From contig DATMYE010000004.1 in assembly GCA_035561095.1 (NCBI GenBank), positions 7,675 to 71,674 of the forward strand: a stretch of 64,000 bases of DNA, written 5' to 3'. Below the pieces are notes generated by a model. That model ran no database searches. It had not been told where the DNA came from and saw only the letters and a program-made list of their open reading frames with translations. Positions 1,262-20,800 of the stretch are shown here, in pieces. Position 1 is the first letter of the stretch, and every line of letters begins with the position of its first letter. The position numbers and the translations under genes were made by a program. This DNA is from Clostridia bacterium. GTDB taxonomy: Bacteria > Bacillota > Clostridia > Christensenellales > CAG-138.

Positions 1262-1344
1262 GGATTGGGTATGTTTGCCAAAGCCCAAGGAAAAGGGCTG
1301 CTGTTCCCGGACGCAGGCGGAAAGACCGCTACAGGTGAGCGATT

Positions 1345-2466: not shown

Positions 2467-2638
2467 AATCTTCTGAACGTAGAAATCTGTGACTTCAATT
2501 GTTACGCGAGATAAATTAATACTACAAATGGGTTAAATTACGCCGCTGGCTACAATACCTTGTAACAAAAATGAACAAGATTGAATATTCACTCACTATG
2601 CGCATGATATAACAAGTCGGTTTACTGGCCGAATATCG

Positions 2639-2679
2639 CCTGCAACGAAGTGTAAAACACTGTTGCAGGTGTTTTTGTT
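2639..2679 (+). terminator. Rho-independent terminator downstream of the GGDEF gene
   Basis: Stem CCTGCAAC / GTTGCAGG with a 15-nt loop, followed by TGTTTTTGTT. Confidence 0.6.
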
Positions 2680-2712
2680 ACATAAATTCGAGAAAAATTC
2701 ACGAATTTCTCT

Positions 2713-2741
2713 TTACACGGGCTTATTTGAAGCATTATACT
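2713..2741 (+). promoter_or_regulatory. Candidate promoter for the giant adhesin gene (about 300-nt leader)
   Basis: TTACAC, 17-nt spacer, TATACT, in the AT-rich intergenic region. Confidence 0.3.
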
Positions 2742-3044
2742 GAAAAAAATGACATCAGCCACGCAACGAATATGTAATGTGTGAGATCTCATTTTTATAA
2801 GTAAAGAGCCTGAAGTTTCACAAGCGCAAACGATTGTAAACCTCTTTTTTAAACAAGAGGAGCCTCTCGTTTGATTTTCGCATTGATTTGTTCGTTCGCA
2901 CACATGAAAAAATAACACAGCCCAACACCGGAGAACCAAAGAAGCGTAAGAAGAAAAATCACAATGTAACAATTAACAAAACGATCCTTTCCACGGAACA
3001 GTATCACCGTCACGAAAATGTAACGAAACACCGGAGGATCCCAT

Positions 3045-6000
3045 ATGTTGTCTGCTACAATGAGCCGGATCAAGAGATTTAGCAAGCGGGCATTCCGCAT
3101 GGTGCTCTGCGCCATGATGGTCTTCCAGACGCTCCTTGTACCGACCTCGGCGCTCGCAGCCGAAACCGCGTTTTATTTCCGCGGGTACGGCTCGGAGAAC
3201 ATCAACTCCACAACGCTCAACTACGCCACAAGCGGCGCGAGCGTCAGCGGGCGGGATGTGACCATCTCCGCGACGGCAAGCGAGGGCGAGGCGATCGGCC
3301 TCGTCAACCTGAATGAGACAGGACATGATATTTCGCAGTCCGTTGATCTCGGCGGGCTGGAGATTGATTTCTCCGTCGTCAGCAACGTGACTGAAGAGGG
3401 CGTCGGTGGGGCAGACAACGATGTACCGACCGCCACGATTTACTTTTGCAGCAGCGCCGACCTCGGCAGCGTGATTTCCTCCGTCACGCTCAACAAGGCG
3501 GACAATGCAGTCGCGGGCAGCGAAACGCTCTCCTCCGGAGCGAAGATTCCCGACGGCACACGCTCGATCTTCCTATCTTTAAAAGGCACAAATAAAACAG
3601 GCAACAACACCGTCACCTTCACGAACACCAGCCTCGTGATCCGCGACGCGGGCGCGCCGACCATCAGCGCGGACTACACCAAGACCTGGACGAATCAGGA
3701 TGTCACCGTGACCATCAACGCCGCGGACAGCGACGCTGGCCTTGAGGGCATCTACGTCAACGACACGCGCGTGACGGGAACCTCTCCTTATACATTCGTC
3801 GTCTCCAGCAACAACACAAGCTTCACGGCCTACGCCATGGACCTCGCCGGAAAGAAATCCGACGTCGCCTCCGCAACCGTGGATCACATCGACAAGACCA
3901 CGCCGAGCGCTCCTTCCTCCGTGCCGCTGAGCAGCAGCAACTGGACGAATGCCGACGTTTATGTTTTGATGCCGGCGCTCTCCGCGAGCACGGGTTCGCC
4001 GGAGCGCTATGTTTACCAGATTGGTTCGTCCGCATGGGCGACCCTGCCGGACGGCTTTGCGATCACCGCGGAAGGCAACACTGTCGTCCGCGTCGCAGTT
4101 GAGGATGAAGCGGGCAACCGCTCCGCCTATGCGCAGGCGACGGCGAAGATCGACAAGAGCGCACCCACCATCAGCAACGCGACCATCACCTCCGGCAGCT
4201 CGTCTGCCAAGGTGGATGTGACCGCCACCGACGTCGGGCTCAGCGGCATCGCGAAATTTGCATACGCCGAGGGTACGCAGACCGCGGATTACTTTACCAC
4301 GGGTGGTACCCTCATTTCCAACGGAACATTCACCGTTGGCGTCGGCGGAACGTACACGCTGTTCGCCAGCGACATCGCTGGCAACACCGCGCTCAAGACG
4401 ATCTCCATCACGACGGCGCCGACCTTTGACGCGGTGAGCAACGTCACGATGAACGAGGACGAAACCAAGAATGTCCCGCTCAGCATTTCGGACGCGGAGA
4501 GCACGCGCAGCGAACTGACCGTTCGCGTCAGCACCACGAATGATGCGCTCCTCGAGCACGTTGTGCTCAACCAGAGTGACAGCGCGATCAGCCTTGACAT
4601 CACACCCGCCGCGAACCAGTCCGGCGGACCCGTGACCGTCACGGTTGAGGTCGAAGACCCGAGCGGACAGAAGGTCTCCCGCCAGTTCACCGTCACGGTG
4701 CAAGCGGTCAACGACCTGCCCGTCGCCCAGAACGACAGCGGAATCACCGTCAACGAAGACAACAAGGTCGAGATCGACGTGCTCGCCAACGACAGCGACC
4801 TCGCCGACGGCGACACGCTGAGCATCAAGAGCGTCGGCGATCCCGCGCACGGCACGACGCTGATCGTGCTCGGCAAGGTTCGCTATACGCCCGCCGAGAA
4901 CTACGCCGGCACCGACAGCTTTACCTATGAAGTATCCGACGGTAAGGGCGGCACCGCACAGGCGACCGTCTCTATCACCGTCAATCAGGTGAACGACGCA
5001 CCGACGGCGCTTGCCGACAAGGCGTCCACCGCGGAAGACACCGCGGTTTCGATCGACGCGCTTGGCAACGACACCGACGTGGACTTCGCCACCGACGCAG
5101 GGGAGAGCATCTCGCTCGTCTCCAGCGCGAACGGTTCGCACGGTACGACCGAGATCGTCGGTGGACTTATCGTCTACACGCCTGATGCGGACTTCAACGG
5201 CACGGACACCTTTACCTATATTATTGAAGACAAAGCGGGGCTGACCTCCGAAGCGACCGTCACAGTCACTGTTGCGCCGGAAGCGGATGCGCCGCGCTTT
5301 GCGAAGCTGAACACCGAATATACGATCGACGAAGACGCGAAGAACGCGGAGATCGCGTTTGAGATCTACGACGTCGAAACCCCGGCGGACAGCCTCATGC
5401 TGCAGGCGGCGACGCTCGACAGCGAGATGCTCGACCAGACCGGCATCGCGATTCAGGGTCTCGGCGACAGCAACGTTGCCGTCAAGCTCCTGCTCTCGCC
5501 CGTTGCAAACCAGCATGGCGACGTCAACATCAAGCTCACCCTCGGCGACGGCTTCGAGACGGTCGAGCAGACGATCGTCGTGCACATCACGAATGTCAAC
5601 GACGCGCCGCGTTCGGGCGCCGACACGCGGACGTTTACCGAGGATTCCGCCTACCTCGATATCAGTATCGCGGGCTTGCTCGCAAACGACAGCGACATCG
5701 ACGGCGACACGGTCTTCTTTGACGGACTCGCGGGCGCTCCCGGCTCCGGCACGATCGAGCTGCTGAACGCGACCACTCTGCGCTATACGCCGGTTGCGGA
5801 TTTCTCCGGCAAGACGAGCTTTACCTATTACATCAGCGACGGCACGGCGAGAACCCTCGCAACCTGCACGCTGGAGGCGACGGGCGTCAACGACGCGCCG
5901 ACCATCGCCATCACCCCGACTGAGATCGCCGGAACGGAAGACACCGTTGTAGTGATTCCGTTTACAATTGCGGATCAGGAGAGCGCGGCTGCCGATCTGG

Positions 6001-9000
6001 AGGTTATCGTCGCAAGCAGCGACGACAATATCGTCACCACCGACGGCGTGACCGTCGTCAACAACGGCGACGGCACCGGCGAAGTGCAGATTCTGCCTTC
6101 TGCGGACGCAAACGGTTCCCCGTCGATCACGCTGACGGTCAGCGACGGCGAAGCACAGGCGAGCGACAGCGTGAAGCTGATCATCGCGCCGACGCAGGAC
6201 GCGCCGGTTGCGGAAGACGATCTCGTCTATGTGCACTACACCACAAGCCGCAGCTTCAGCCTGCTCACCAACGACCACGACGTGGACGGTGACACGCTTA
6301 CGGTGAAGTCTTACGCCGCGGAACTGCCCGGCACGCTGACGTTTGACATCGACACGCAGATGTTCACCTATGTGCCGTCGATCGGCGAGAACGGCATCAG
6401 CACGTTCACCTATACCATCACCGACGGCAAGGACACCGATACAGCGACCGTTGAACTCGATGTCGTCAGCGAGACGCACAGCCCCGTGATCACGGCGATT
6501 GACAGCCGCTACGTCTCGGAGGACGGCACCCTCAGCGGCATCGCCTTCAGCGTGTCCGATGAGGACATCGGCGATACGGCGACCATCACCGTCGATTCCG
6601 GCAACACGACCATCCTGCCGGAGGACGCCGACCATATCACGGTTACCAATAACGGCAGCGGGAACTATTCACTCGCGCTCAGTCCGGCTGCCGATCAGTC
6701 CGGCACCGTCAGCGTGACGGTCACCGTCACCGACGGCTCGTCGCTTTCCGACAGCACGACGTTCTACCTGCACGTCATCGGCCAGAACGACGCACCGATT
6801 GCAGTCAACGACGCGATCACCATGAACGAGGACGGCTCGCTGACGCTCAACCTGCTCGGCAACGACTCCGATCCCGACGGCGACACGATTTGGCTTTCCA
6901 GCCTGTCCTGGCCGAGCCACGGCTATATGGAGCGCACCGGCAACACCTATACCTACTATCCCTACGGCAACTGGAACGGCACGGAGACGCTGACCTACCG
7001 TGTTTCGGACGGCCGCGCAACCGCACAGGCAACCGCCGTCATCACGGTCAACCCCGTGAACGACGATCCGACCGCCTGGGACGATTGGTTCGAGATCGGG
7101 AATACAACCGGAACAGAGAGCGCGAACATCAATGTGCTCGGCAACGATTATGACGTCGACACCGGAGACGTGATCCGCACCTATGAGATCGTCACGGCGC
7201 CGAGCTACGGCACCGCGGTCATTGAAACCAACGGCACGATCACCTATACGCGCAACCAGATTTCGCCGCTCGGCAACGGCGCGGATTCGTTTGTCTACCG
7301 CATCATCGACCGCGAAACCGCGACCGGCGACTACCGCAGCGCGACCGCGACGGTGCACATCGGTGTGGAGTTCATCAGCACGCTCAATACCTATGGCACA
7401 AGCGTCTACTGCTATGAGGACGATGCGGCCTTCAACATCGACATTCCCGTGAGTAACCCGACGCCCGTTACCTACGGGCTGACGATCAACACAACGACGA
7501 CGCTCGGAACATTTGAAGTTCTGGATAACAACACCGTGCGCTTTACGCCCGCGCCGAACCAGAACGGCTATGCGTCCATCTCCTACACGGTCGAACAGAT
7601 CGGCGGCGGGGAAAAGGACACGGGTACCATCTGGCTCCGGGTCTATCCGGTCAACGACCTGCCGGAGATCACCTCCGCGCCGAGCTCCGTGACGTTTGAT
7701 GAAGACGCAAGCACGGGCACGACGTTTGACGTCGCCTTCCGGGACGCGGACATCGCAAACGAATACCTCTACTTCTACGTCTACACCCAGAGTGGGACGT
7801 CCACATCCCCGATTCCGTTCCTCGTTTCCTACAGCGTCACCCGCACGGAAGCGGGCGCAAAGGTCACCGTGCACGCCGACCAGAACGTCAACGGCACGGG
7901 CAAGATCACCATCGGCGTCAGCGACGGCATGACGTATACCGAAAAGACGATCGATCTGACGATTCGCCCCGTGGACGACGCGCCGGTGGTCAATCCGGTC
8001 GCAAAGACCATCAACGAGGATTCTTCCGTGACGTTTGCCTCGCCCGGCTCGGACAGCGAGGCGGACGGCGACAGCGTAATCTACGCCATCGATCCCGCGA
8101 ACATGCCGCAGCACGGAACGGCGACCCTGCACGACAATCACACGATCACTTATGTACCGAACGCGAACTACAACGGCACGGATACGTTCAAGGTGCTCGT
8201 TACCGACGTCACCGAAGCCGCGCTTTCGACCGCAGGACAGGTGAGCATCACCGTCCGCCCGATCAACGACGCGCCGGAAATCCGCGATCTTTCCTATTAT
8301 CAGACCACGCTGGAAGACACGGCAAAGGATGTCACCCTGACCGTCAGCGACGTTGACAACGACATGACGGGCAGCACACACTACACCCTGACGTCGGAAG
8401 ACCAAACGCTGGTCAAGAACGCGAATATCACCATCAGCCACGTGTCCGGAGAACAAATGGTCATCCACGTCGTGCCGGAAGCCAATGCCTACGGCACCGT
8501 GAAGATCAACATCTCGGCCAGCGACGGCAGCCTGAACGCGAAAGCCGCGTTCTCGCTCAAGATCGTGCCGGTCAACGATATCCCCGCTGCCGTGGATGAC
8601 ACCGCGAGCGTGAACGAAGCCGTCTCCACCGGCGCGGAATCCACTCCGCCGAAGACCACGGTCACCCTCAATCTGCTCACCAACGATTCCGACGTCGAGG
8701 ACGGCAAGCCCAGCGTGGTCGCCGTCTCCAACGTGGTCAACGCGACCGTCGCCAACATCGGCGGCGGCAAGGTGCTGGTCACTGCGGACGGAGACTTCAG
8801 CGGAACCGTCACGTTTACGTATACCGTCATGGATCGCGCGGGCGCAACCGACACCGCGGACGTCACCTTGACCGTCAACGCGGTCAACGACCCGCCGCGC
8901 GCCAAGGCCGACAGCATCACGATTCTGGAGGACGCGACGCCGCAGATCAGCGTGCTCGCGAACGACAGCGATCCCGAGGGAGACACGCTCTCCATCTCGA

Positions 9001-12000: not shown

Positions 12001-15000
12001 ACACGGACGACGACCTCACGACAAACCCCGCGACGGAGTACATCAAGGTCAAGACCGTCACGGACAATGATCCCAACGCGGTCATCACGAAGGCTGCCGA
12101 CGGACTCAGCGTCACGGTTGTGCCGAGCGCAAACTACAACGGACCTCTGAGCTTCACCTATACGGTGGAAGACGCTCTCGGTGCGGAGAGCAACGCCGCG
12201 ACGGTCGGCATCACGGTCACGCAGGTCAACGACGCGCCGGTGACGGCCGCCGACACCGCGACGACCAACGAGGACACCGCGGTCGATATCAGCGTGCTGA
12301 GCAACGACAGTGACATCGATATGCAGTCCGGCCTGAACGCGAACCCGTCCGCGGAGTCGATCAGCGCCGTGATCACTGGCACCGGACTCACCGCGCCCGG
12401 CCACGGATCAATCGCGACCGACGGCACCAAGATTACGTATACGCCCGCCGCAAACTACAACGGCACGGATACGTTTGATTACTACTGCTCCGACGGAGAC
12501 GTGAAAACCAAAGGCACCGTCACGGTCACCGTTAAACAGGTCAACGATAACCCGGTTGCCAACACCGACACCGTCTCCACAAACGAGGATACGGCGACGG
12601 TCGAGGTTGACGTGCTGGCAAACGACACGGACGTCGACACCGGAGCCGCGCTGAACCTGGACGTCAAGCACCTGACGACGGACTTTACGATCACCGATGC
12701 AACGGTGACGAATGCCTCCCACGGCAGTGTACAGATCGTCAACAACAAGCTCAAGTTCACGCCTGCGCTGAACTGGTTTGGCGTGGAAGTCGTCAACTAC
12801 ACCATGAGCGACGGACACGGCGGCACCGCAAGCAGCACGCTGACCGTGACGGTCATCTCCGTCAACGATCTGCCGGTGTTTGACACGGCTCCCGAGAACA
12901 TGAGCCTGACGGAAGACGGGGTAAACGGCGTCACAACCGTTGTGGTCAGCGACATCGAGACCGCGGCGGCATCGCTTGCGGTCACGGTGACGGCCAGTTC
13001 TAAGACCTCCTTGATCGCGACCACGGACGTCACGGTCACAGCAGGCGCGGGCGGCACGCGCACAATCACTGTCAACCCGAAGAACGATCAGAACGGGTCG
13101 GCGACGATCACCCTGCAGGTCAAGGACGGAAACAACGCCGTGCAAACCATCACCTTTGTCGTGACGGTCGCCGCGGTCAATGACACGCCGGCTGCCGGCG
13201 ACAAGACGCTGAACATCCCCGAAGACGCGACACTGCAGACCGTCACCAAGACCAGCCTGACGACAGACGCCGACATCGCGACCAACTCGGATGTGCTCAC
13301 GCTCACGATTACGACGGCTGCTTCCCATGGTACGGCAAGCATCAACGCCAGCGGCAACGTGACGTATATCCCGAACGCGAACTTCAACGGCGTGGATACG
13401 TTTGTCTACACGGCGACCGATCTCACGGGCGCGTTCGACACGGGCACGTTCACGGTCAACATCTCGCAGGTCAACGACGCGCCGACGACCACCGCGGACA
13501 CCGCGACGACCAACGAGGACACTGCGGTCGATATCATGGTGCTGAGCAACGACAGCGACATCGACATGCAGTCCGGCCTGAACGCAAACCCGGCCGCGGA
13601 GAGCATCTCCGCCGTGATTACGGGCGCAGGGCTCACCGCGCCGAGCCACGGCACTATCGCGACCGACGGAACCAAGATTACGTATACGCCCGCCGCGAAC
13701 TACAACGGCACGGACGTGTTTGACTACTATTGCTCCGACGGCGACACACAGGTGAAGGGCACTGTCACCGTTACGATCTATCAGGTCAACGACAACCCGG
13801 TTGCCGTCGCGGACACAAGCAGCACGAATGAAGACACCGCTAAGAGCGGAATCGACGTGCTCGCAAACGATACGGATGTTGACACGGGCTCCACGCTGAA
13901 CCTGAACGAGCTGCACAGCAAGAGCGATTTCACCATCACTGCGGCAACGCTTACCAACAGCGCGCACGGCAGCGTTGAGATCGTTGGCAACAAGCTGAAC
14001 TTTACCCCCGCGCTGAACTGGTTCGGCACGGAGGTGGTCAACTACACCGTCAGCGACGGACACGGCGGAACCGCGAACGGCACGCTGACCATGACGGTCA
14101 ACCCGATCAACGACCTGCCGGTGTATGACACCGAGCCGGAAGACATGAACCTCTCGGAGGACAGCGCGGACGGCGTGACCACCGTTGTGGTCAGCGACAT
14201 CGAAACTGCCGCTGCATCGCTTGCCGTCACGGTCATCAGCAGCACCAACACCAGCCTGATCGCGACCTCCGACGTGACGGTCACGGCGGGCACGGGCGGC
14301 ACGCGCACGATCACCGTCAACCCGAAGCTCAACCAGAACGGCACGGCGACGATCACGCTGAAGGTCGACGATCTTACGGGCGGAACCCGCACGGTGACAT
14401 TCGATGTCACGGTTGCTGCGGTCAATGACGCACCGGTTGCAGACGACCATCAGCTGAACATCAATGAAGATGCGGCGCTGCAGACCGTCTTGAAGACGAT
14501 CCTCACGAGCGACGTCGACATCGTGACCAACGCGGACGCACTGACGCTCACAATTAGTTCGCCCGCTTCGCATGGTACGGCCTCGATCGATGCCAGCGGC
14601 AACGTCACCTACATCCCGACCGCGAACTTCAACGGCACGGATTCGTTTACGTACACCGCGACGGACAAGGAAGAAGCCACCGATACGGGCACGTTCACGA
14701 TTAACATCGCGCAGGTCAACGATGCGCCGGTCACCACCGCGGACACCGCGACGACCAACGAGGACACCGCGGTCGATATCGGCGTGCTGACCAACGACTC
14801 CGATGTGGATATGGACGCCGCTCTCAATGCGCATCCCGAGAGCGAGAGCATCAGCGTCGTGCTCACGGGCACGGGCCTTACCGCGCCGAGCCACGGCTCC
14901 ATCGCGACCGACGGCACCAAGATCACGTATACGCCCGCCGCGAACTACAACGGTACGGATACGTTTGACTACTATTGCTTCGACGGCGATGTGAAGACCA

Positions 15001-18000
15001 AGGGAACCGTCACCGTCACCATCAAGCAGGTGGACGACAGCCCCGCTTACGGGCCCGACTTTGCCACCATTGATGAAGACACGGCGACGGGATTCATCGA
15101 TGTCATGGCAAACGATACGGACGTCGACCTTGATCCTGCGCTGAACCAGGACAACCTGCTGCTCAGGAGCAACTTCTACATCTCCGCCGCTTGGGTCTCG
15201 GACGCCGCGTCCGGAACGGTGACGCGCGAGAACAACCAGGTCAAGTTCACGCCTGCGGCGAACTGGTTCGGGACGGCGAAGGTCTACTACACGCTGCAGG
15301 ACGGCTACGGCGCATCCTGCGTCGGCCTTCTGACGATCACCGTCAACCCGATCAACGACCTGCCGGTGTATGACACCGAGCCGGAAGACATGAACCTCTC
15401 GGAGGACGGCGCGGACGGCGTGACCACCGTTGTGGTCAGCGACATCGAGACTGCCGCGGCATCGCTTGCCGTCACGGTCATCAGCAGCACCAACACCAGC
15501 CTGATTGCGACCTCCGACGTGACGGTCACGGCGGGCACGGGCGGCACGCGCACGATCACCGTCAACCCGAAGCTCAACCAGAACGGCACGGCGACGATCA
15601 CATTGCAGGTTGACGATCTCACGAGTGGAAAGCGCACGGTGACGTTTGATGTCACGGTGGCGTCGGTCAACGACGCACCGGTTGCGATCGATAAGACGCT
15701 GGATATCGATGAAGACGCCGCGCTCCAGACCGTCACAAAGGCGAGCCTGACGACGGACGTCGACATCGCGACCGACGCGGACGCACTGACGCTCACGATC
15801 TCGTCGCCCGCTTCGCACGGCACGGCGGGCATCGATGCAAACGGCAACGTCACCTATATCCCGACCTCGAACTTCAACGGCACGGACTCGTTTGAGTACA
15901 CCGCGACGGACAAGTTCGGCGGCGTCGACACGGGGATCTTCACTATTCATGTTGCCCCGCTGAACGACGCTCCTGTGACCGCCAACGACAGCAAGACCAC
16001 CAACGAAGACACGGCGGTCGATATCAATGTGCTGAGTAATGACAGCGACGTGGATATGGATGCTGCTCTCAACGCGAATCCCGAGAGCGAGAGCATCAGC
16101 GTCGTGCTCACAGGCACCGGACTCACCGCGCCAGCTCACGGCACCATTGCAACCGACGGCACCAAGATCACGTATACGCCCGCGGCAAACTACAACGGCA
16201 CGGATACGTTTGACTACTACTGCTCGGACGGCGATGTGAAGACCAAGGGAACCGTCACCGTCACCATCAAGCAGGTGAACGATATTCCCGTTGCAAATCC
16301 CGAGGAAGCAACGATATCGGAAGACTCTGCGACGGACTTCATCGACGTTCTGGCGAACGATACGGACGTCGATCTGGATTCTGCCCTGAACCAGGACGAC
16401 ATGCTGCTGCGCAGCAAGTTCTATATCAGCGCGGCTTCCGTGAACATCAGCGCATACGGAACGGTCGAACTCGTGGATAACAAGATCAAGTTCACCCCGA
16501 CCGCAAACTGGAACGGTGTTGCGCTGGTCTATTACACGCTGCAGGACGGCTACGGGATGTCCTGTTCAACCGCGCTGCGGGTGACCGTTACGCCGGTCAA
16601 CGATTTGCCGTACAGCACGCTGCCTCCGGCAACGCAGAATCTTACGGAGGACGGTGAGGACGGCGCAAGCCTGTTCTACGTGAACGACGTGGAAACGGCG
16701 GCCTCGCTCGTGAGTGTGACGCTCAAGAGCTGCAGCAACACGACGCTGATCCCGCTTTCGGCTATCACCTTGGAGCACAAAGGCGGCGAAGGCCGGCTGA
16801 TCACGGTCAATCCGGCGGACAACCGGTTCGGCGACGCGCTGATCACGCTGGTGCTCGAGGATGCGGACGGCGGCAAGTCGGAAGTGACGATGGAGGTGCA
16901 TGTTTCCTCCGTCAACGATGCGCCCGTTGCGCAGGACAAGACACTGGATCTGAATGAAGACATCGGCAAGATATCGGTCGCGAAGTTCGCACTAGCAAGC
17001 GATGTGGACACCATCACCAACGGGGATGTGGTCACGCTCACGATCTCGAAGTCTGCTCTGCACGGCACCGCCGCGATCGATGCAAACGGAGACGTGACAT
17101 ATGTGCCCAACAAGGACTTCAATGGCGTGGACTCGTTTGAATACACCGCGACGGACAAAGCGGGCGCAAGCGATAGCGGCACCTTCACGATCAATCTCCC
17201 GCAGGTGAACGACGCGCCGGTTGTCCAAAACGATGCGGCGATGACGGATGAAGACACCGCGGTTGACATCTACGTGCTCGACAACGACAGCGACGTGGAT
17301 ATGGATGCATCTCTAAACGCGAATCCGGAGGAAGCGAGCATCACCGTCGTCATCACGGGCGCGGGTCTTACGGCACCTAGCCACGGAACGATCGCGACCG
17401 ACGGAACGAAGATCACTTATACACCCGCCGCGAACTACAACGGCACGGACACGTTTGATTACTACTGCTTCGACGAGCATGTGCAGGTCAAGGCGACCGT
17501 CACCGTCACCATCAAGCAGGTGAACGACAACCCGGTCGCGAACGCGGACAGCACCTCCACGGATGAAGACACTGCTGTAAGCTACAACGTGCTCGCGAAC
17601 GACAGCGACGTGGACACCGTCTCCGCGCTGAACGAGAACGCGCTGCACCTGAAGAGCTCGTTTACGGTCGACAGCTGCTATTTCTACGGCGGCACGAACG
17701 GGACGCTCGCAATCGACGGCGCGAACATCGTCTACACGCCCGCTTCTGACTTCTACGGCACGCAGATCATCAAATACGTGCTCAAGGACGGCAACGGCGG
17801 CTCCAGCACCGGCACACTGACCGTGCTGGTTGGCACTAAGAACGACGCGCCGGTTGCAAACGCGGATGAGATGAGCGCGGATGAAGACCATGTGGCATCC
17901 GTCAATGTGCTGACAAACGATACGGACGTTGACACGGGCGACACCAAGACGTTCCTCGGCTTCATCGAGCCGACGAGCGGACTCCCCGGCACGTTCACGA

Positions 18001-20750
18001 CCGACGAAAACGGGGAACTCACCTTCACGCCGGATGCAAACTACAACGGAAGCTTCGAGCTGACCTATCAGATGAAGGACACTGCCGGACTGATCAGCTC
18101 CGCGAAGCTCACCGTGACCATCCATCCAGTCAACGACGCGCCGGTTGCGGACGATCAGAACGTCTCCGCCGTCGAGGACACGCAAAAGACGATCGATGTC
18201 TCCGGCATCATCGGCGATGTGGACGTTGAAACCAATGACGACGTGATCACCGTCAGCGTTACCGACACGGGTAAGCCCGCACACGGAACCGTCAGCGTCT
18301 CCGGCACGGTGCTCACCTATACGCCGGAAGCGGACTACAACGGCACCGACATGATCACCTACACGGTGACCGACGCGAAGGGTCTGAATGACATCGGCAG
18401 GCTGAACATCACGGTAAGCGCAATCAACGATGCGCCTGTCGCGGTGGACGACGAAAAGACCGTGCTTGAAGACAGCACCAACAGCATCTTCGCGCTCGTC
18501 AACGACTACGACGTCGACACCGACGATATGCTCAACGCCGAACCTGCGGAAGCGCCGTACATCCTCTCCGTGACAGACGGCGCGCACGGCACGGCGACCA
18601 CGGACGGAACGAAGATCACCTACACGCCGGATGCGGACTACAACGGCACCGATGCGATCACCTATGTGCTGAGCGACGGGCTGAAGACCGCAGATGCGAC
18701 GATCGATCTTTCAATCACACAGGTCAACGACAGCATCGTGGCCAGGGACGATCTTGCTGCGACCAACGACGAAGAGACGGTCACGGTGGACGCGCTCGGC
18801 AACGACACGGATGTGGACACCGACAAGGCGCTCAACGAAGACGAGCTGCACCTTGTCAGCAGCTTCCGCATCACCGAGGTCGGCACACCGGAACACGGCA
18901 CGGCGCAGATCGTCTCCGGCAAGATCGAGTACACGCCGGAAGACCGCTTTGCGGGCGACGATACCTTCACCTATACCGCTTCGGACGGACACGGCACGAC
19001 TTCGGTTGCAAACGTGACGGTTACGGTCATCAGCGTGAACGATCCGCCGGTGATCAAGGTTGTTTCGAGTCCGAAGGACGGAGACCGCGCAGGCACCGGA
19101 TCGAAGATCACGGTCGAATGGACCGGATTTGACATCGACGGTGACGCGCTGACCTATACCCTCGAGTACTACGACGGCAAGACCTGGCAGCTCATCGACA
19201 AGAACCTGACCGGAACGAAGTATGAGTTCGCGATTCCGGATACGCTCGGCAGCACCGACGGGCTCAAGTTCCGCGTGAACGTGCGCGACAGCGAGTTCAC
19301 GAGCGAATACGGCTACTCCGGCGCGATGAAGGTCGACAAGGATGCGCCGAAGGGTACGGTCGTGACCATGCAGACGGCGGATGGCAAGACCTATACCGCA
19401 GGCACATGGACGAATCAGACCGTGACGGTGGTCGCAGCCAGCGCAGTTGACGCCTCGAAGGTCACCTATTACTACGACATGGACGGCGGTGCCAGCGCGG
19501 CAGCCGCGGGCATGGACGTGACGCAGGGCGTGCACACCGTGAACATCCGCGCGGTGGATGAATACGGCAACAGCACCGTCGTGGGCGCATACCTCGCGCG
19601 CGTAGACAAGCAGCAGCCCGCCGTGCCGGAGATCCGCGAGAGCGTGTCCGGCGGCGCCGTAGTGCTGACGCTCACGCTGAGCGCAGACCCCGGCGGCAGC
19701 GGAAACAACACCCTCATCCTGCCGGACGGCACAACGGCCAAGGCTTCGGGCAGCCCGACCTTCTCCGTGGCCAAGAACGGCACGGTGAACTTCACCCTGA
19801 CCGACATCGCGGGCAACCGCAGGGCGTTTACACACACTGTCGGCACGGTCGACGTCAGCAAACCCCTGATCACGCTCGCTTCCGGCGCGTACCGCACCGG
19901 AACCATCACGCAGGACACGATCTCGGCGATGCTGACCTTCTCGGACGCGGAGAGCGACATCGTCAACCGCGGCTATCAGCTCTCGCAGAGTGCAACGCCC
20001 AGCGGCTCCTACCGCACCTATGACGGTGCGCTGAAGCTCACGGATGCCGGAACCTACTACATCCACGCCTACGCTAAGAATGCGTTCGGGCTCACGACCT
20101 ACGAGACATTCGGCCCGTTCATCATCGAAGCAGTCGAAGCGCCCGCAGCCTCGCCCACGCCCGCGCCGGAGACCGGCGATGTCGTGGTCACCAAGGAGGA
20201 CGTTGAGGAGATTCCGGGCGACACGGTCAAGATCCGTCTGCCCGGCAAGGAGTGGAGCGAAACGCTCACGCTTGAGGACGTTGGCCCCGGCACGTACCTG
20301 ATCGAGGCGATGGACGCGGACGGCAATGTCCGCACGGTTGAAGTGCGCGTGACCATGCGCGATATCTTCGCGCGGTCGCTCCGCTCGGCAGGCGACAACG
20401 TCACGCTGGCGGCGATCCTCGCGATTGTAGCCCTCGCGGCAATCGCGTTTGCGCTGCTGTTCTACAGCTACAACATCACCGTGGTCGTGGTCGGTAAGCG
20501 CGGCGTATCCGAGCAGAAGCTGCGTACATTGCGGCGCATGAAGTTCCGCAAGAAGGAGCTTCTCGTCAAGCTCGACAACAAGTATTTGATTGGCGGCGAA
20601 TTCGCGGACTTCAAGGTCGCAAAGGCACTGAGCAAGAAGATGCGCGGCAACACGATCATTGTGACCTTCCGCGGCGAGGAAGTGCTGCGCGAGACACTTC
20701 CGGAGGACTTTGACGAGTCGTTCCGCCGCAAGATCATGATCGAGCGCTAA
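3045..20750 (+). CDS. Giant (5,901 aa) Sec-exported surface protein with cadherin-like/'tandem-95'-type repeats, a C-terminal TM anchor and a cytoplasmic tail
   Basis: - Uninterrupted 17,706-nt ORF with GGAGG 7 nt upstream of the ATG.
- Signal peptide MLSATMSRIKRFSKRAFRMVLCAMMVFQTLLVPTSALA|AE.
- About 48 modules of 95-105 aa separated by [VI]-N-D-x-P linkers, with DxDxDGD-type acidic loops and NYNGTDSFTYT / HGT motifs.
- TM helix VTLAAILAIVALAAIAFALLFYSY (20400-20471), then a 92-aa basic tail. Confidence 0.93.
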   Translation: MLSATMSRIKRFSKRAFRMVLCAMMVFQTLLVPTSALAAETAFYFRGYGSENINSTTLNYATSGASVSGRDVTISATASEGEAIGLVNLNETGHDISQSVDLGGLEIDFSVVSNVTEEGVGGADNDVPTATIYFCSSADLGSVISSVTLNKADNAVAGSETLSSGAKIPDGTRSIFLSLKGTNKTGNNTVTFTNTSLVIRDAGAPTISADYTKTWTNQDVTVTINAADSDAGLEGIYVNDTRVTGTSPYTFVVSSNNTSFTAYAMDLAGKKSDVASATVDHIDKTTPSAPSSVPLSSSNWTNADVYVLMPALSASTGSPERYVYQIGSSAWATLPDGFAITAEGNTVVRVAVEDEAGNRSAYAQATAKIDKSAPTISNATITSGSSSAKVDVTATDVGLSGIAKFAYAEGTQTADYFTTGGTLISNGTFTVGVGGTYTLFASDIAGNTALKTISITTAPTFDAVSNVTMNEDETKNVPLSISDAESTRSELTVRVSTTNDALLEHVVLNQSDSAISLDITPAANQSGGPVTVTVEVEDPSGQKVSRQFTVTVQAVNDLPVAQNDSGITVNEDNKVEIDVLANDSDLADGDTLSIKSVGDPAHGTTLIVLGKVRYTPAENYAGTDSFTYEVSDGKGGTAQATVSITVNQVNDAPTALADKASTAEDTAVSIDALGNDTDVDFATDAGESISLVSSANGSHGTTEIVGGLIVYTPDADFNGTDTFTYIIEDKAGLTSEATVTVTVAPEADAPRFAKLNTEYTIDEDAKNAEIAFEIYDVETPADSLMLQAATLDSEMLDQTGIAIQGLGDSNVAVKLLLSPVANQHGDVNIKLTLGDGFETVEQTIVVHITNVNDAPRSGADTRTFTEDSAYLDISIAGLLANDSDIDGDTVFFDGLAGAPGSGTIELLNATTLRYTPVADFSGKTSFTYYISDGTARTLATCTLEATGVNDAPTIAITPTEIAGTEDTVVVIPFTIADQESAAADLEVIVASSDDNIVTTDGVTVVNNGDGTGEVQILPSADANGSPSITLTVSDGEAQASDSVKLIIAPTQDAPVAEDDLVYVHYTTSRSFSLLTNDHDVDGDTLTVKSYAAELPGTLTFDIDTQMFTYVPSIGENGISTFTYTITDGKDTDTATVELDVVSETHSPVITAIDSRYVSEDGTLSGIAFSVSDEDIGDTATITVDSGNTTILPEDADHITVTNNGSGNYSLALSPAADQSGTVSVTVTVTDGSSLSDSTTFYLHVIGQNDAPIAVNDAITMNEDGSLTLNLLGNDSDPDGDTIWLSSLSWPSHGYMERTGNTYTYYPYGNWNGTETLTYRVSDGRATAQATAVITVNPVNDDPTAWDDWFEIGNTTGTESANINVLGNDYDVDTGDVIRTYEIVTAPSYGTAVIETNGTITYTRNQISPLGNGADSFVYRIIDRETATGDYRSATATVHIGVEFISTLNTYGTSVYCYEDDAAFNIDIPVSNPTPVTYGLTINTTTTLGTFEVLDNNTVRFTPAPNQNGYASISYTVEQIGGGEKDTGTIWLRVYPVNDLPEITSAPSSVTFDEDASTGTTFDVAFRDADIANEYLYFYVYTQSGTSTSPIPFLVSYSVTRTEAGAKVTVHADQNVNGTGKITIGVSDGMTYTEKTIDLTIRPVDDAPVVNPVAKTINEDSSVTFASPGSDSEADGDSVIYAIDPANMPQHGTATLHDNHTITYVPNANYNGTDTFKVLVTDVTEAALSTAGQVSITVRPINDAPEIRDLSYYQTTLEDTAKDVTLTVSDVDNDMTGSTHYTLTSEDQTLVKNANITISHVSGEQMVIHVVPEANAYGTVKINISASDGSLNAKAAFSLKIVPVNDIPAAVDDTASVNEAVSTGAESTPPKTTVTLNLLTNDSDVEDGKPSVVAVSNVVNATVANIGGGKVLVTADGDFSGTVTFTYTVMDRAGATDTADVTLTVNAVNDPPRAKADSITILEDATPQISVLANDSDPEGDTLSISSVGTPAHGTAQINGTSIDYVPVKDYFGTDSFTYTVSDGNGGTATATVTITIKPVNDAPTVNKHSSTAGDWQMLEDTTQSFNFVVADAESAVNNLIIKITSLDETLIKTTQIQLTTNAAGYKVLTVTPVLNAYGVVDLKITVSDGLLSTEAIYPLMIVSVNDAPVVTAPVQTTKEDTQLHASAYATDAEGDSVTFAKYTDPAHGTVTVSADGSYDYMPAKDYNGEDSFIILADDGKAENHAGYATVYITVKPDNDPPTAQDDSITIDEDTPTTVTVMANDTDQDVPYGDKISLLSVTAPAHGTAVISGDAILYTPAENYNGTDSFTYTITDRDGKTDTATVSVTIRPVNDAPKGGDDTASVLEDHSVDISVTENDDVDETTNPTLEDVTILSVDTPAHGTASISTDKKTITYTPDANWFTPEGAPEVFYYTAKDSSDQTGRFAVTVTVTSVNDLPVITPSDLPNVTTAEDTQTDAITFTVSDIETAAGSLTVTATHLNGVLLPAISVTPNADGTCSFTVLPNANKVGSALITVKVTDADGGQVSDTFTLTVTPVNDVPRPGNDAFTVAETGTYTADVLANDDVDTLSNNGGDTLTLLSIATPQYGTATIVNNKLYYVPKADRDTTANYYDIFTYTMKDASGNECTPTVTVTVTPVNDAPTISAIADVTGILEDAPDGTGDISFNVADEEDDDNTLAVSTASSDTTLFPVSNISITNPTDDPTGSLRTVKVIPAANQYGTATITLTVRDAQGKTATTSFDVTVESVNDVPYNGDRSFTVVEDVEKQLDVLTGIDPDYATVPADITITAIATQPSHGTVRIASDGKSLYYKTAQDSNEPDSFQYTIHDAYGNADYTFTVTITVTPVNDAPVITYLGNATYTIYEGTQQNDIPFNVTDVDNVTDASGTAPVEVTLSAKSSNSILLVNGIHIDTLAGNNRDIDLKPYLKWNGNTTVTITATDPGGLKATASFQLVVNNVNDTPVAVNDSFTIPEDQTSSVNVLGNDTDDDLTTNPATEYIKVKTVTDNDPNAVITKAADGLSVTVVPSANYNGPLSFTYTVEDALGAESNAATVGITVTQVNDAPVTAADTATTNEDTAVDISVLSNDSDIDMQSGLNANPSAESISAVITGTGLTAPGHGSIATDGTKITYTPAANYNGTDTFDYYCSDGDVKTKGTVTVTVKQVNDNPVANTDTVSTNEDTATVEVDVLANDTDVDTGAALNLDVKHLTTDFTITDATVTNASHGSVQIVNNKLKFTPALNWFGVEVVNYTMSDGHGGTASSTLTVTVISVNDLPVFDTAPENMSLTEDGVNGVTTVVVSDIETAAASLAVTVTASSKTSLIATTDVTVTAGAGGTRTITVNPKNDQNGSATITLQVKDGNNAVQTITFVVTVAAVNDTPAAGDKTLNIPEDATLQTVTKTSLTTDADIATNSDVLTLTITTAASHGTASINASGNVTYIPNANFNGVDTFVYTATDLTGAFDTGTFTVNISQVNDAPTTTADTATTNEDTAVDIMVLSNDSDIDMQSGLNANPAAESISAVITGAGLTAPSHGTIATDGTKITYTPAANYNGTDVFDYYCSDGDTQVKGTVTVTIYQVNDNPVAVADTSSTNEDTAKSGIDVLANDTDVDTGSTLNLNELHSKSDFTITAATLTNSAHGSVEIVGNKLNFTPALNWFGTEVVNYTVSDGHGGTANGTLTMTVNPINDLPVYDTEPEDMNLSEDSADGVTTVVVSDIETAAASLAVTVISSTNTSLIATSDVTVTAGTGGTRTITVNPKLNQNGTATITLKVDDLTGGTRTVTFDVTVAAVNDAPVADDHQLNINEDAALQTVLKTILTSDVDIVTNADALTLTISSPASHGTASIDASGNVTYIPTANFNGTDSFTYTATDKEEATDTGTFTINIAQVNDAPVTTADTATTNEDTAVDIGVLTNDSDVDMDAALNAHPESESISVVLTGTGLTAPSHGSIATDGTKITYTPAANYNGTDTFDYYCFDGDVKTKGTVTVTIKQVDDSPAYGPDFATIDEDTATGFIDVMANDTDVDLDPALNQDNLLLRSNFYISAAWVSDAASGTVTRENNQVKFTPAANWFGTAKVYYTLQDGYGASCVGLLTITVNPINDLPVYDTEPEDMNLSEDGADGVTTVVVSDIETAAASLAVTVISSTNTSLIATSDVTVTAGTGGTRTITVNPKLNQNGTATITLQVDDLTSGKRTVTFDVTVASVNDAPVAIDKTLDIDEDAALQTVTKASLTTDVDIATDADALTLTISSPASHGTAGIDANGNVTYIPTSNFNGTDSFEYTATDKFGGVDTGIFTIHVAPLNDAPVTANDSKTTNEDTAVDINVLSNDSDVDMDAALNANPESESISVVLTGTGLTAPAHGTIATDGTKITYTPAANYNGTDTFDYYCSDGDVKTKGTVTVTIKQVNDIPVANPEEATISEDSATDFIDVLANDTDVDLDSALNQDDMLLRSKFYISAASVNISAYGTVELVDNKIKFTPTANWNGVALVYYTLQDGYGMSCSTALRVTVTPVNDLPYSTLPPATQNLTEDGEDGASLFYVNDVETAASLVSVTLKSCSNTTLIPLSAITLEHKGGEGRLITVNPADNRFGDALITLVLEDADGGKSEVTMEVHVSSVNDAPVAQDKTLDLNEDIGKISVAKFALASDVDTITNGDVVTLTISKSALHGTAAIDANGDVTYVPNKDFNGVDSFEYTATDKAGASDSGTFTINLPQVNDAPVVQNDAAMTDEDTAVDIYVLDNDSDVDMDASLNANPEEASITVVITGAGLTAPSHGTIATDGTKITYTPAANYNGTDTFDYYCFDEHVQVKATVTVTIKQVNDNPVANADSTSTDEDTAVSYNVLANDSDVDTVSALNENALHLKSSFTVDSCYFYGGTNGTLAIDGANIVYTPASDFYGTQIIKYVLKDGNGGSSTGTLTVLVGTKNDAPVANADEMSADEDHVASVNVLTNDTDVDTGDTKTFLGFIEPTSGLPGTFTTDENGELTFTPDANYNGSFELTYQMKDTAGLISSAKLTVTIHPVNDAPVADDQNVSAVEDTQKTIDVSGIIGDVDVETNDDVITVSVTDTGKPAHGTVSVSGTVLTYTPEADYNGTDMITYTVTDAKGLNDIGRLNITVSAINDAPVAVDDEKTVLEDSTNSIFALVNDYDVDTDDMLNAEPAEAPYILSVTDGAHGTATTDGTKITYTPDADYNGTDAITYVLSDGLKTADATIDLSITQVNDSIVARDDLAATNDEETVTVDALGNDTDVDTDKALNEDELHLVSSFRITEVGTPEHGTAQIVSGKIEYTPEDRFAGDDTFTYTASDGHGTTSVANVTVTVISVNDPPVIKVVSSPKDGDRAGTGSKITVEWTGFDIDGDALTYTLEYYDGKTWQLIDKNLTGTKYEFAIPDTLGSTDGLKFRVNVRDSEFTSEYGYSGAMKVDKDAPKGTVVTMQTADGKTYTAGTWTNQTVTVVAASAVDASKVTYYYDMDGGASAAAAGMDVTQGVHTVNIRAVDEYGNSTVVGAYLARVDKQQPAVPEIRESVSGGAVVLTLTLSADPGGSGNNTLILPDGTTAKASGSPTFSVAKNGTVNFTLTDIAGNRRAFTHTVGTVDVSKPLITLASGAYRTGTITQDTISAMLTFSDAESDIVNRGYQLSQSATPSGSYRTYDGALKLTDAGTYYIHAYAKNAFGLTTYETFGPFIIEAVEAPAASPTPAPETGDVVVTKEDVEEIPGDTVKIRLPGKEWSETLTLEDVGPGTYLIEAMDADGNVRTVEVRVTMRDIFARSLRSAGDNVTLAAILAIVALAAIAFALLFYSYNITVVVVGKRGVSEQKLRTLRRMKFRKKELLVKLDNKYLIGGEFADFKVAKALSKKMRGNTIIVTFRGEEVLRETLPEDFDESFRRKIMIER
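12222..17201 (+). repeat. Four in-phase tandem copies of a 1,245-bp (415-codon, 4-module) super-repeat inside the giant gene; a partial fifth copy continues to about 17840
   Basis: The homologous string (CAGGTCAAC, CCGCTGAAC or CAGGTGAAC, then GACGC) occurs at 12222, 13467, 14712, 15957 and 17202. The spacing is a constant 1,245 bp. The translated units align without indels. Confidence 0.9.
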
Positions 20751-20768: not shown

Positions 20769-20800
20769 CAAAAACGGGGAGCAGAGGCTCCCCGTTTTTT
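20769..20800. terminator. Bidirectional rho-independent terminator between convergent genes
   Basis: AAAAACGGGGAG-cagagg-CTCCCCGTTTTTTT: an 8-bp GC-rich stem flanked by an A-run and a T-run. Confidence 0.85.

Follow-up and report, generated by a model that had tools for sequence, protein, structure and literature searches.

Stalks of tandem-95 and cadherin-like repeats are best known from type 1 secretion adhesins, and the locus described here raises the question of how a giant protein with such a stalk would leave a clostridial cell and stay attached to it. The window, by which we mean the whole 64-kb stretch of DNA that was analysed, carries a single frame of 5,901 codons, previously predicted from its letters to encode an adhesin held by a C-terminal membrane helix. 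We consider it likely that the product forms a giant surface fibre on a Christensenellales-type clostridial host, is exported by the Sec pathway and is retained as a type I membrane protein, with its C-terminal tail serving as a cytoplasmic stopper.

Gene structure and integrity

The gene and its expression signals are as follows:

2712..2741, + strand: promoter-like site TTTACA-18-TATACT (consensus scan, 10/12 matches)
3033..3037, + strand: ribosome-binding site GGAGG, 7 nt 5' of the ATG, read directly
3045..20750, + strand: giant adhesin ORF, 5,901 aa (mature protein 613.5 kDa, pI 4.05)
20770..20799, no strand: bidirectional terminator hairpin of 13 pairs, 20 nt past the stop codon

The uninterrupted frame and good ribosome-binding site of the original prediction were confirmed, as the 5,901 codons run from an ATG with zero internal stops, and GGAGG lies 7 nt upstream. 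The base composition is of the coding type, judging from a third-position GC content (GC3) of 0.82 that matches other genes in the window. The promoter-like site sits in an AT-rich spacer of 578 nt and would imply a leader of about 300 nt; it is a weak candidate because shuffled sequence also yields one such site. No Rfam family was found at gathering scores in the whole window, leader included, and a c-di-GMP or other riboswitch in the spacer was discarded after a permissive scan of 2440-3100 returned noise (E > 4). The gene is monocistronic and ends in a strong terminator.

Misassembly is common for giant repeat genes, and some relatives of this locus look damaged: two (L002 and L004) contain a frame change, one (L003) is shortened to 533 codons and two others (L012 and L013) have N gaps. 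It is nevertheless highly improbable that the frame is an artefact of assembly, or belongs to a pseudogene in decay whose copy here is open by accident. Chance cannot give 5,901 stop-free codons, and independent orthologues agree in both ends and in domain order. The modules share about 29% protein identity overall and the long repeat copies at most 84% DNA identity; with copies this diverged, the gene has no long stretches of identical repeat for an assembly to collapse. In 9 of 16 genomic relatives, four complete chromosomes among them, the frame is also open throughout the 10 kb of upstream flank. We conclude that the giant ORF is a real gene, and the frame change and truncation in some relatives suggest that it may be dispensable, or just hard to assemble.

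Export signal and tip domain

The N-terminal part of the protein comprises three regions:

3045..3158, + strand: Sec-type signal peptide, aa 1-38, with predicted cleavage between ALA and AE
3159..3644, + strand: N-terminal tip domain, aa 39-200, presumed ligand-binding end
3645..4406, + strand: three Ig-like / OmpL47-type beta-barrel modules, aa 201-454 (NF047446 match)

Simple sequence rules, conservation in orthologues and the AlphaFold helix were used to call the signal peptide and the membrane helix. The N-terminus, MLSATMSRIKRFSKRAFRMVLCAMMVFQTLLVPTSALA followed by AE, has a basic n-region, a hydrophobic core (aa 19-38) and A at -3 and -1, consistent with the Sec-type signal peptide that had been proposed, and three orthologues (P0021, P0031 and P0036) have equivalent N-termini. 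The non-repeat tip that was claimed to follow is indeed a distinct domain and is kept in orthologues, with 46-52% identity across the three full-length ones. Neither Pfam and NCBIfam scans nor a PDB sequence search with a 4-sequence profile gave a match to it, and thus no ligand can be named. Behind the tip, the expected D-x-x-(A/T)-P boundaries of three Ig-like modules were found at aa 200, 282 and 369, and NCBIfam NF047446 matched these modules in 3 stretches with 43.6 bits (cut-off 40).

Stalk repeats

Most of the protein is a repetitive stalk:

4407..19034, + strand: stalk of 48 contiguous tandem-95 / Big_9 / Cadherin_4-5 modules, aa 455-5330
12191..17837, + strand: four-module super-repeat of 1,245 bp / 415 aa, modules 27-44

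A profile built from the protein's own modules counted 48 of them, nearly gapless over aa 455-5330, matching the earlier estimate of about 48 modules of about 100 aa. The module-wise HMM check that had been suggested assigned them to Pfam Big_9, Cadherin_4 and Cadherin_5, all with scores far above the cut-offs, and to NCBIfam tandem-95 (NF012211) with 888 and 933 bits (cut-off 90) in 25 + 24 stretches; the protein is thus a member of the tandem-95 / Big_9 / Cadherin_4-5 repeat surface proteins. An N-D-x-D-x-D/E loop occurs in 23 of the 48 modules, and the alternation of loop-bearing and loop-less modules described previously does not hold in any strict form. Within the super-repeat the order is loop, loop, no loop, variant, repeated in 5 copies of 63-84% DNA identity, with direct repeat families at 1,245-bp spacing and maxima of protein identity between modules 4, 8 and 12 positions apart. 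The Asp-rich loops probably bind Ca2+ and stiffen the rod, for which a length of the order of 200 nm may reasonably be expected from about 56 Ig-like domains.

The claimed kinship of the repeats to RTX adhesins is borne out by the loop-type module profile, which resembles RTX repeats in the PDB (36gk_A 'RTX protein', E 3e-8); PDB sequence searches with a single four-module unit and with the C-terminal cassette gave nothing useful. The tie to type 1 secretion implied by the original prediction is too narrow, as partial NCBIfam matches place the same repeats in substrates of myxosortase and rhombosortase. The stalk repeats account for the partial matches to NF038112 and TIGR04212, and the protein shares them with rhombotarget A / GlyGly-CTERM proteins and with myxosortase-dependent M36 peptidases; unlike those proteins, it scores far below the respective cut-offs and has no sorting-signal match in its last 149 residues.

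Membrane-proximal cassette, helix and tail

Downstream of the stalk, six features lead to the C-terminus:

19035..19331, + strand: FN3-like module, aa 5331-5429, start of the conserved membrane-proximal cassette
19332..20144, + strand: three Ig-like modules of the N-terminal type, aa 5430-5700 (VDKDAP, VDKQQP, VDVSKP)
20133..20174, + strand: short Pro/Thr/Ala-rich linker, aa ~5697-5710, read from the translation
20175..20393, + strand: small beta domain just before the membrane, with the juxtamembrane motif VTMRDIFARSLRSAG, aa ~5711-5783
20394..20471, + strand: single predicted transmembrane helix, aa ~5784-5809 (Kyte-Doolittle maximum 2.98)
20472..20747, + strand: predicted cytoplasmic tail domain, aa 5810-5901, beta-rich and basic, core of the anchor module

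The distal FN3/Ig-like block of the original prediction corresponds to the FN3-like module, 53-80% identical in ten homologues, and to the three Ig-like modules that start at aa 5430, 5520 and 5602 (48-67% identity in homologues; a weak match of 23.8 bits to NF047446, below the cut-off of 40). The PT-rich linker that had been noted is the short stretch around aa 5697-5710, which varies among homologues. The pre-membrane region is 42-83% identical across homologues, and V-T-x-R-D-x-x-A-R is invariant in the close ones.

Over the whole protein, Kyte-Doolittle analysis found two hydrophobic segments only, at aa 19-38 and aa ~5784-5812. AlphaFold, run on helix and tail with 31 sequences, gave a model with pLDDT 84 in which a helix is followed by 8 strands; it supersedes an earlier run with 9 close sequences (pLDDT 60) and supports the predicted C-terminal topology of a helix and then a small beta-rich domain. 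The modelled helix spans aa 5784-5808 (residues 3-27 of a query starting at aa 5782), in agreement with the transmembrane helix first placed at 20400-20471. The tail of 92 residues is basic, as had been stated, with 23 K/R vs 13 D/E, and the first 30 residues past the helix contain 11 K/R vs 2 D/E, which puts the positive charge on the predicted cytoplasmic side.

A relaxed-motif pattern search found no LPxTG-type pentapeptide within 75 residues of the helix, in line with the absence reported from inspection; the closest sortase-like motif, APETG, lies 75 residues before the helix and is not conserved in homologues. The protein was accordingly rejected as a sortase substrate, having no pentapeptide directly before the helix and a tail of 92 residues. 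The absence of a type 1 secretion signal also stands: RTX nonapeptides (GGxGxD) occur nowhere in the protein, and the C-terminus consists of the helix and a tail predicted to fold, with no C-terminal secretion signal. A type I, membrane-tethered stalk fits every sequence feature and is conserved in full-length orthologues from independent assemblies, so that Sec export with a C-terminal tether is a well-supported prediction.

A portable, putative anchor module

Helix and tail recur as a unit. A profile search covering 1.84 billion representative proteins found the module in 39, and among the matches listed that reach the end of the module, this end always lies within about 10 residues of the protein C-terminus. 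Three of the proteins are full-length giant orthologues (4,625, 4,663 and 5,075 aa), and a further giant of 4,125 aa is incomplete at its N-terminus; the full-length ones have tip, Ig-like modules, cassette and tail in the same order, and the contigs that carry them are independent and up to 1.08 Mb long. Helix and tail are also conserved in 12 close homologues, and the module terminates Flg_new / InlB B-repeat proteins, which have another ectodomain. Genomic relatives with the module are Christensenellaceae/Clostridia metagenome-assembled genomes; their contigs were scanned with a close alignment (A2), which locates close relatives only, and the best tail identity in reference genomes was 76%. 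Complete chromosomes of relatives include OW818651.1 and OY762962.1. No part of the protein is less conserved among distant orthologues than the tail (22-40% identity). The original prediction had overlooked that helix and tail form a domain family reused on other surface proteins.

An alignment of 31 sequences (A3) defines the hallmarks of the module: an extreme C-terminal position, a hydrophobic helix followed directly by an invariant Asn, and in the tail a basic hairpin LRTxRRLK, R-M-R-G, and I-P-x-D-A ... F. The window protein, whose own tail is among the 31 members, scores 128 bits against this profile, and there is no second copy in the 64-kb window. Scans of the last 149 residues against Pfam and NCBIfam with an E limit of 1 gave no match, including none to the PEP-CTERM, GlyGly-CTERM, MYXO-CTERM and T9SS C-terminal domain models; a PDB profile search with the tail gave E of about 1 or worse, and Foldseek on the model of helix and tail a best E of 1.2 with TM-scores < 0.3, global scores that are lowered because the query contained the membrane helix. 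Helix and tail are thus a conserved, portable anchor module absent from the domain databases searched, and would be a new kind of anchor on what is probably an ordinary kind of adhesin.

We also considered a PilZ domain, given an RRxxxR-like string in the tail. Its last position is K, R or G in the family, there is no (D/N)xSxxG, none of the 31 members matches PF07238 in Pfam at E up to 10, and no PilZ structure is among the Foldseek matches; other known c-di-GMP receptors were ruled out by the Pfam scans and Foldseek.

The module is a concrete candidate for an adhesin anchor in Christensenellales-type Clostridia, where it is found on at least two kinds of surface protein, including fibres of ~0.6 MDa. 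Its profile would improve the annotation of surface proteins in the Christensenellaceae, a family of interest to gut and subsurface microbiology whose members are otherwise hard to study.

Comparison with known adhesins

The stalk resembles that of the RTX adhesins secreted by type 1 systems (LapA, SiiE, MpIBP type), which are likewise giant and acidic, with Ig/cadherin-like modules of ~100 residues and Asp-rich loops; a match to the NCBIfam BapA/Bap/LapF adhesin model fell below its cut-off. The protein was rejected as an RTX/T1SS adhesin of the LapA or SiiE type, as it lacks GGxGxD and carries a Sec signal peptide in place of the N-terminal retention module. Its polarity is also reversed, with the tip N-terminal and the anchor C-terminal, and, unlike for those adhesins, genes for an ABC transporter, a membrane fusion protein or TolC were not found beside the giant gene. 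In both designs a folded domain on the cell side may serve as a retention plug. The host lineage also differs: Christensenellales stain Gram-negative, and lack LPS and outer-membrane genes (PMC11448272). A tandem-95/cadherin-like stalk would here be used with Sec export and reversed polarity in a lineage without outer-membrane genes (PMC11448272), and the "Gram-positive-type genome" of the original prediction is not that of a classical Gram-positive (PMC11448272). One might speculate that a thin wall favours membrane over sortase anchoring.

Sortase-anchored LPXTG fibrillar adhesins of Firmicutes share the N-terminal signal peptide and adhesive end, a stalk towards the C-terminus, and a C-terminal hydrophobic segment plus basic residues (PMC8286594); they differ in that the protein described here has no LPXTG or variant near the helix and has a conserved tail domain of ~92 residues. 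A survey of fibrillar adhesin-like proteins left about half of them without a recognised anchor and suggested that further anchor domains are still to be found (PMC8286594). Of the three parts that define a fibrillar adhesin (Monzon et al. 2021), namely a stalk of repeats, a distinct adhesive domain and a cell anchor, the protein has the stalk and the anchor, while its distinct tip is conserved in orthologues and has no match among known adhesive domains.

By comparison of architectures, staphylococcal Ebh and Embp are the closest functional analogue for the anchoring mode. Embp of S. epidermidis is 10,203 aa long, and its export signal and giant repeats precede a helix at aa 10,070-10,088, behind which comes a tail (PMC4330918), and Ebh of Staphylococcus aureus is the sole MgrA-regulated surface protein without LPXTG (PMC4856396). 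Set against these published descriptions, the layout agrees throughout: an N-terminal export signal, thousands of tandem-repeat residues as a rod, several non-repeat modules close to the membrane and, at the C-terminus, a single transmembrane segment with a tail of ~100 residues behind it, and no LPXTG (PMC4330918; PMC4856396). The stalks, in contrast, are alpha-helical FIVAR/GA and DUF1542 repeats in Ebh and Embp and beta-sandwich tandem-95/cadherin-like modules here. FIVAR, GA and DUF1542 were absent from Pfam scans of the whole protein and of its ends, so that homology is undetectable by repeat families, and the tails are set beside each other by description only. Because Ebh and Embp share the anchoring principle, its earlier portrayal as unusual for a Gram-positive-type genome was overstated (PMC4330918, PMC4856396).

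Proposed mechanism and alternatives

In the scheme that we favour, Sec would export the precursor N-terminus first and signal peptidase I would cleave it after ALA38. Some 5,750 residues would then fold outside into a rod with the tip domain farthest out, three Ig-like modules behind it and then the 48 acidic tandem-95/cadherin-like modules, about half of them with Asp-rich, probably Ca2+-binding and rod-stiffening loops. The cassette (FN3-like, three Ig-like and one small beta domain) would be long enough to cross the wall, and the single C-terminal helix would halt translocation, so that the protein remains a type I membrane protein. The basic, beta-rich domain of ~92 residues would stay in the cytoplasm, pressed on the inner membrane face, as a folded, lipid-binding stopper that prevents extraction of the ~0.6-MDa fibre from the membrane. 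This stopper role is the most likely one for the tail, as argued from its position, fold and charge, and the protein as a whole would function as an adhesin. The analysis shows the ORF with its domain families and two hydrophobic segments, and a conserved C-terminal module that the databases lack; from these we infer signal-peptide cleavage, membrane topology, the binding of Ca2+, the length of the rod, adhesion and what the tail does.

Known sorting signals have tails only a few residues long. The tail described here, with ~92 residues, conserved and predicted to fold, therefore argues against helix and tail being a transient retention signal, after which an unrecognised enzyme would cut at the juxtamembrane motif and either link the fibre to the wall or release it. 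We regard such processing as quite improbable: an LPxTG-type pentapeptide is absent within 75 residues of the helix, and no partner or processing-enzyme gene is common to the five other contexts inspected beside anchor-bearing genes. In its favour, helix and basic tail also end sortase substrates, the helix is preceded at 5-20 residues by a conserved motif (in the close clade V-T-x-R-D-I-x-A-R-S-x-R-S and in the wider family I-T-I-T-D-E-x-I-A-x-G), and anchoring motifs missed by current searches are suspected by the authors of PMC8286594. This motif, however, differs among subfamilies, and R-D-I-F-A-R-S-L-R-S is helical and continuous with the membrane helix in the low-confidence model (pLDDT 60), which does not suggest a flexible cleavage loop. 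With the same topology the protein might instead not be primarily an adhesin, acting rather as an envelope spacer or shield, or as a fibre for cell-cell aggregation or biofilm matrix. That is unlikely in our view, even though the tip has no match to known adhesive domains, wall and shape genes abound in the conserved neighbourhood, Embp acts in intercellular aggregation and Ebh is described as determining cell size (PMC4330918, PMC4856396), and roles have been proposed for Ebh in envelope integrity and for Embp in biofilms. The wall genes nearby have housekeeping functions and keep their synteny irrespective of the adhesin gene, the stalk families are those of known adhesins, and a unique, conserved tip far out on a long stalk is the standard layout of monoderm adhesins (PMC8286594).

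Genomic neighbourhood

For the membrane-tethered adhesin, we also considered a link to the conserved gene pair upstream:

292..843, + strand: DUF5317 membrane protein gene (Pfam DUF5317, E 4e-21; four hydrophobic segments)
1345..2466, + strand: membrane-bound diguanylate cyclase gene (Pfam GGDEF, E 4e-36)

The predicted cyclase has about 6 hydrophobic segments, and its GGDEF domain contains both an intact GGDEF motif and an RxxD site (RNSDTIARWGGDEF). Its gene lies directly upstream in 8 of 11 metagenome loci, where cyclase identity falls to as little as 43%, and also in L003, and the DUF5317 gene, the first of the pair, was seen in 6 metagenome loci and L003. LapA is under LapD/LapG control, and a tail that coupled the fibre to c-di-GMP from this cyclase, as a signalling or retention domain, would parallel that control functionally with unrelated parts, giving inside-out c-di-GMP control of the display, shedding or clustering of a giant adhesin without an outer membrane. 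We think such coupling improbable: the conserved Arg/Lys-rich hairpin of the tail (A3) and the DUF5317-GGDEF-adhesin order kept in 8 of 11 metagenome relatives count for it, whereas distant orthologues have no GGDEF cyclase neighbour and the tail is not PilZ-like. The neighbours of the giant gene in the window are DUF5317, GGDEF, epimerase and amidohydrolase genes, and the conserved neighbourhood contains many genes for the wall and for cell shape, including MreB, NlpC/P60 with peptidoglycan-binding domains, YkuD and LytR-CpsA-Psr.

The giant gene and its product

The putative giant adhesin is encoded by one open reading frame (window 3045..20750, + strand) of 5,901 codons whose only stop is the terminal one, in line with the original prediction of a single uninterrupted frame. 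Its third-position G+C (0.82) is like that of the other genes in the window, GGAGG lies 7 nt 5' of the ATG, and the gene is real. The 578-nt AT-rich spacer that separates it from its upstream neighbour contains one promoter-like site (2712-2741), a number not above chance expectation, and no Rfam family matched in the spacer or elsewhere in the window. Because the stop codon is followed by a hairpin of 13 pairs with T runs flanking both sides (20770-20799), the gene looks monocistronic.

A Kyte-Doolittle scan of the 5,901 residues returned just two hydrophobic segments, aa 19-38 and aa ~5784-5812. The former combines a basic n-region with Ala at -3 and -1 (ALA|AE), a predicted standard signal peptidase I site without a lipobox. 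From the first segment onwards the protein is laid out as follows.

aa 39-200: N-terminal tip domain, after the signal peptide
aa 201-454: three Ig-like modules (NCBIfam: OmpL47-type beta-barrel domains)
aa 455-5330: stalk of 48 back-to-back modules, by a profile built from the giant protein itself
window 12191-17837: four-module super-repeat region inside the stalk
after the stalk, in order: FN3-like module, three Ig-like modules of the N-terminal type, short Pro/Thr-rich linker, small beta domain, helix, tail

The tip matched nothing in Pfam, NCBIfam or PDB sequences. The stalk modules scored hundreds of bits against Big_9, Cadherin_4 and Cadherin_5 in Pfam and tandem-95 repeats in NCBIfam. 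The original count of about 48 modules agrees with the self-profile, and the earlier description of the protein is accurate overall. The alternation of loop-bearing and loop-less modules that it proposed holds approximately, not strictly: an N-D-x-D-x-D/E loop occurs in 23 of the 48 modules, and modules 27-44 form a four-module super-repeat (415 aa / 1,245 bp, 5 copies). At 63-84% DNA identity, this super-repeat implies recent expansion by unit duplication and is the exception in a stalk whose modules share a mean identity of 29%, the remainder being old and diverged. The loop-type module profile matched a solved 'RTX protein' in the PDB (36gk_A, E 3e-8), and the loop-less profile gave a weak match to cadherin-1. 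By analogy with these families, the Asp-rich loops probably bind Ca2+, and about 56 Ig-like domains would give a fibre near 200 nm long. The mature protein has a mass of 613.5 kDa and a pI of 4.05; its 92-residue tail carries 23 K/R versus 13 D/E, with 11 K/R within the first 30 residues.

The anchor module is a conserved and portable domain family

For the last 196 residues there are 12 close homologues, mostly gene fragments at contig ends, and those that reach the gene end conserve the helix and the entire tail. Of 1.84 billion representative proteins, 39 matched a profile of helix and tail, 25 of them at E up to 1e-10. All listed matches covering the end of the module stop at most about 10 residues from the protein C-terminus; the other matches listed span just a portion of the module and are mostly to short fragment proteins. 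Among the 39 are three full-length orthologues, P0021 (4,663 aa), P0031 (4,625 aa) and P0036 (5,075 aa), from independent contigs of 25 kb, 78 kb and 1.08 Mb. They share the layout of signal peptide, same tip, N-terminal Ig-like modules, tandem-95 stalk, membrane-proximal cassette of FN3-like, Ig-like and small beta domains, and tail, with identities to the giant protein of 46-52% in the tip, 48-80% in the cassette and 22-40% in the tail. A fourth giant, P0048 (4,125 aa), is without its N-terminus. The module also ends surface proteins of Listeria-Bacteroides / InlB B-repeats (Flg_new), namely P0024, P0026 and P0032 (loci L032 and L033), and is therefore portable between ectodomains; the NCBI annotation assigns one such InlB B-repeat carrier, MHB1315754.1, to a Christensenellales MAG.

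The Asn that directly follows the helix is invariant in an alignment of 31 sequences, which also shows a basic hairpin (LRTxRRLK...), R-M-R-G and I-P-x-D-A...F. AlphaFold run on this alignment (pLDDT 84, pTM 0.66) modelled eight strands and two short helices immediately after the helix. Neither Pfam, searched with all 31 members at E up to 10, nor NCBIfam nor a PDB sequence-profile search matched the module, and Foldseek of the model against the PDB gave a best E of 1.2; a PilZ assignment of the tail was rejected on the Pfam and Foldseek results. The anchor is thus a conserved, portable, uncatalogued domain family.

Anchoring mechanism and known systems

The repeat family of the stalk is widespread and combines with many sorting systems. 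The giant protein does not qualify as an RTX/T1SS adhesin: it contains no RTX nonapeptides, a defining feature of that class, and partial NCBIfam matches to BapA/LapF adhesins and to myxosortase/rhombosortase substrates fell far below cut-offs and are due to the stalk repeats. Nor does it qualify as a sortase substrate: as originally noted by eye, no LPxTG-type motif lies near the helix. With relaxed motifs, the closest hit is APETG, 75 residues upstream and variable among homologues. Pfam and NCBIfam sorting-signal models had no match on the last 149 residues.

The evidence best supports a fibre tethered to the membrane as a type-I protein, and the topology first proposed is a sound inference; the only two hydrophobic segments are a signal peptide-like one and the C-terminal helix. 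The protein would be exported via Sec with cleavage of its signal peptide, the extracellular rod carrying the unique tip at its far end and the conserved cassette spanning the wall. The helix would then halt transfer, leaving the folded basic tail domain at the cytoplasmic face, where it may act as a stopper and lipid-binding foot against extraction of the very long fibre. Such a role would parallel that of the retention plug in type 1 secretion adhesins, although the tail lies at the other end of the protein and consists of unrelated parts.

The claim that this anchoring is unusual was overstated as regards the principle. Embp (10,203 aa) combines an export signal with giant repeats, DUF1542 modules and, at aa 10,070-10,088, a helix behind which a tail follows (PMC4330918), and Ebh is the sole MgrA-regulated surface protein without LPXTG (PMC4856396). 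Both resemble the giant protein in anchoring logic, without homology to it. What stands of the claim, and what is new here, is the anchor itself, which is uncatalogued. About half of fibrillar adhesin-like proteins have no known anchor (PMC8286594), a picture that the giant protein fits.

A cyclase gene upstream in one clade

Genes for a DUF5317 membrane protein and a membrane GGDEF protein (window 292-2466) lie directly upstream. In the latter protein, which has six membrane segments, the GGDEF motif is intact and an RxxD site is present. With the tip domain as query, a scan of metagenomes yielded 11 relatives; in eight the same cyclase gene lies just upstream (six of these also with DUF5317), and the cyclase-giant gene order is kept down to 43% cyclase identity. 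Locus L003 shows the same DUF5317-GGDEF-giant gene order, whereas the P0021, P0031 and P0036 loci have other contexts and the cyclase is absent; the Flg_new module-bearing proteins have no neighbours in common in the contexts inspected. The c-di-GMP link is therefore limited to one clade, a lead and not a family property. The giant gene would be of high interest only if its tail proved to signal in connection with the neighbouring cyclase.

Genomic setting and gene integrity in relatives

Scanning one genome per species with the anchor module gave 16 relatives (five complete chromosomes), all Christensenella, Christensenellaceae or unclassified Clostridia MAGs. Downstream genes are as in the window at 12 of the 16 loci (epimerase, amidohydrolase, SIR2, MreB, NlpC/P60 with peptidoglycan-binding domains), and in most of those 12 the YkuD transpeptidase gene is present as well, as is the convergent gene just 3' of the giant gene; thus the window is core chromosome.

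20812-22029 (-): convergent 405-codon ORF, weak DUF6144 match only
26547-27584: mreB
27790-30180: NlpC/P60 wall hydrolase, 796 residues, four PG_binding_1 domains
30221-31348: YkuD L,D-transpeptidase with SH3 domains, after the NlpC/P60 gene
32422-33558: LytR-CpsA-Psr gene, on the strand opposite to the NlpC/P60 and YkuD genes
37296-42172 and 53662-63283: core landmarks (DUF2232, GdpP c-di-AMP phosphodiesterase gene, DnaB, start of the S10/spc operon with L3, L4, L2, S3 ...)

Christensenella minuta is listed among the Bacillota that stain Gram-negative but have neither LPS nor outer-membrane genes (PMC11448272). Products of the window itself include a LytR-CpsA-Psr protein and wall hydrolases that carry peptidoglycan-binding domains. 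The NlpC/P60, YkuD and LytR-CpsA-Psr genes form a wall-remodelling cluster adjoining mreB.

The reading frame is open across the entire 10-kb upstream flank at nine of the 16 loci; of the others, two show a single frame change, two contain N gaps and in one the gene is cut to 533 codons. The frame changes, in L002 (a complete chromosome) and L004, fall around 6500-7400, within the last 10 kb. In L003 (2656-4254, a short-read MAG) the 533 codons left start inside the FN3-like module, directly after the GGDEF gene. These three breaks reflect either real decay or assembly error. L020 (ERZ21831265 ctg76923l) has the window's gene order with nearly every gene split, mreB and the amidohydrolase gene included, which is typical of uncorrected long-read errors; errors of this type account for the many short fragments among the database 'homologues' of the tail.

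The convergent ORF occurs just 3' of the giant gene in seven relatives at 59-72% identity; two of the seven (L011, L012) carry a diverged second copy (~32%), and in L013 a diverged copy (31%) is the only one. The window's convergent ORF overlaps a +-strand ORF of higher third-position G+C. At 50-54 kb, where small regulator genes lie (one for an HTH_3 protein, one for a GntR/FCD protein), the G+C content dips. Beside P0021, L017 (18318-24063) encodes two proteins whose genes were not seen beside the other orthologues, one of 268 residues with a prepilin-type N-terminal methylation motif and one of 1,599 residues.
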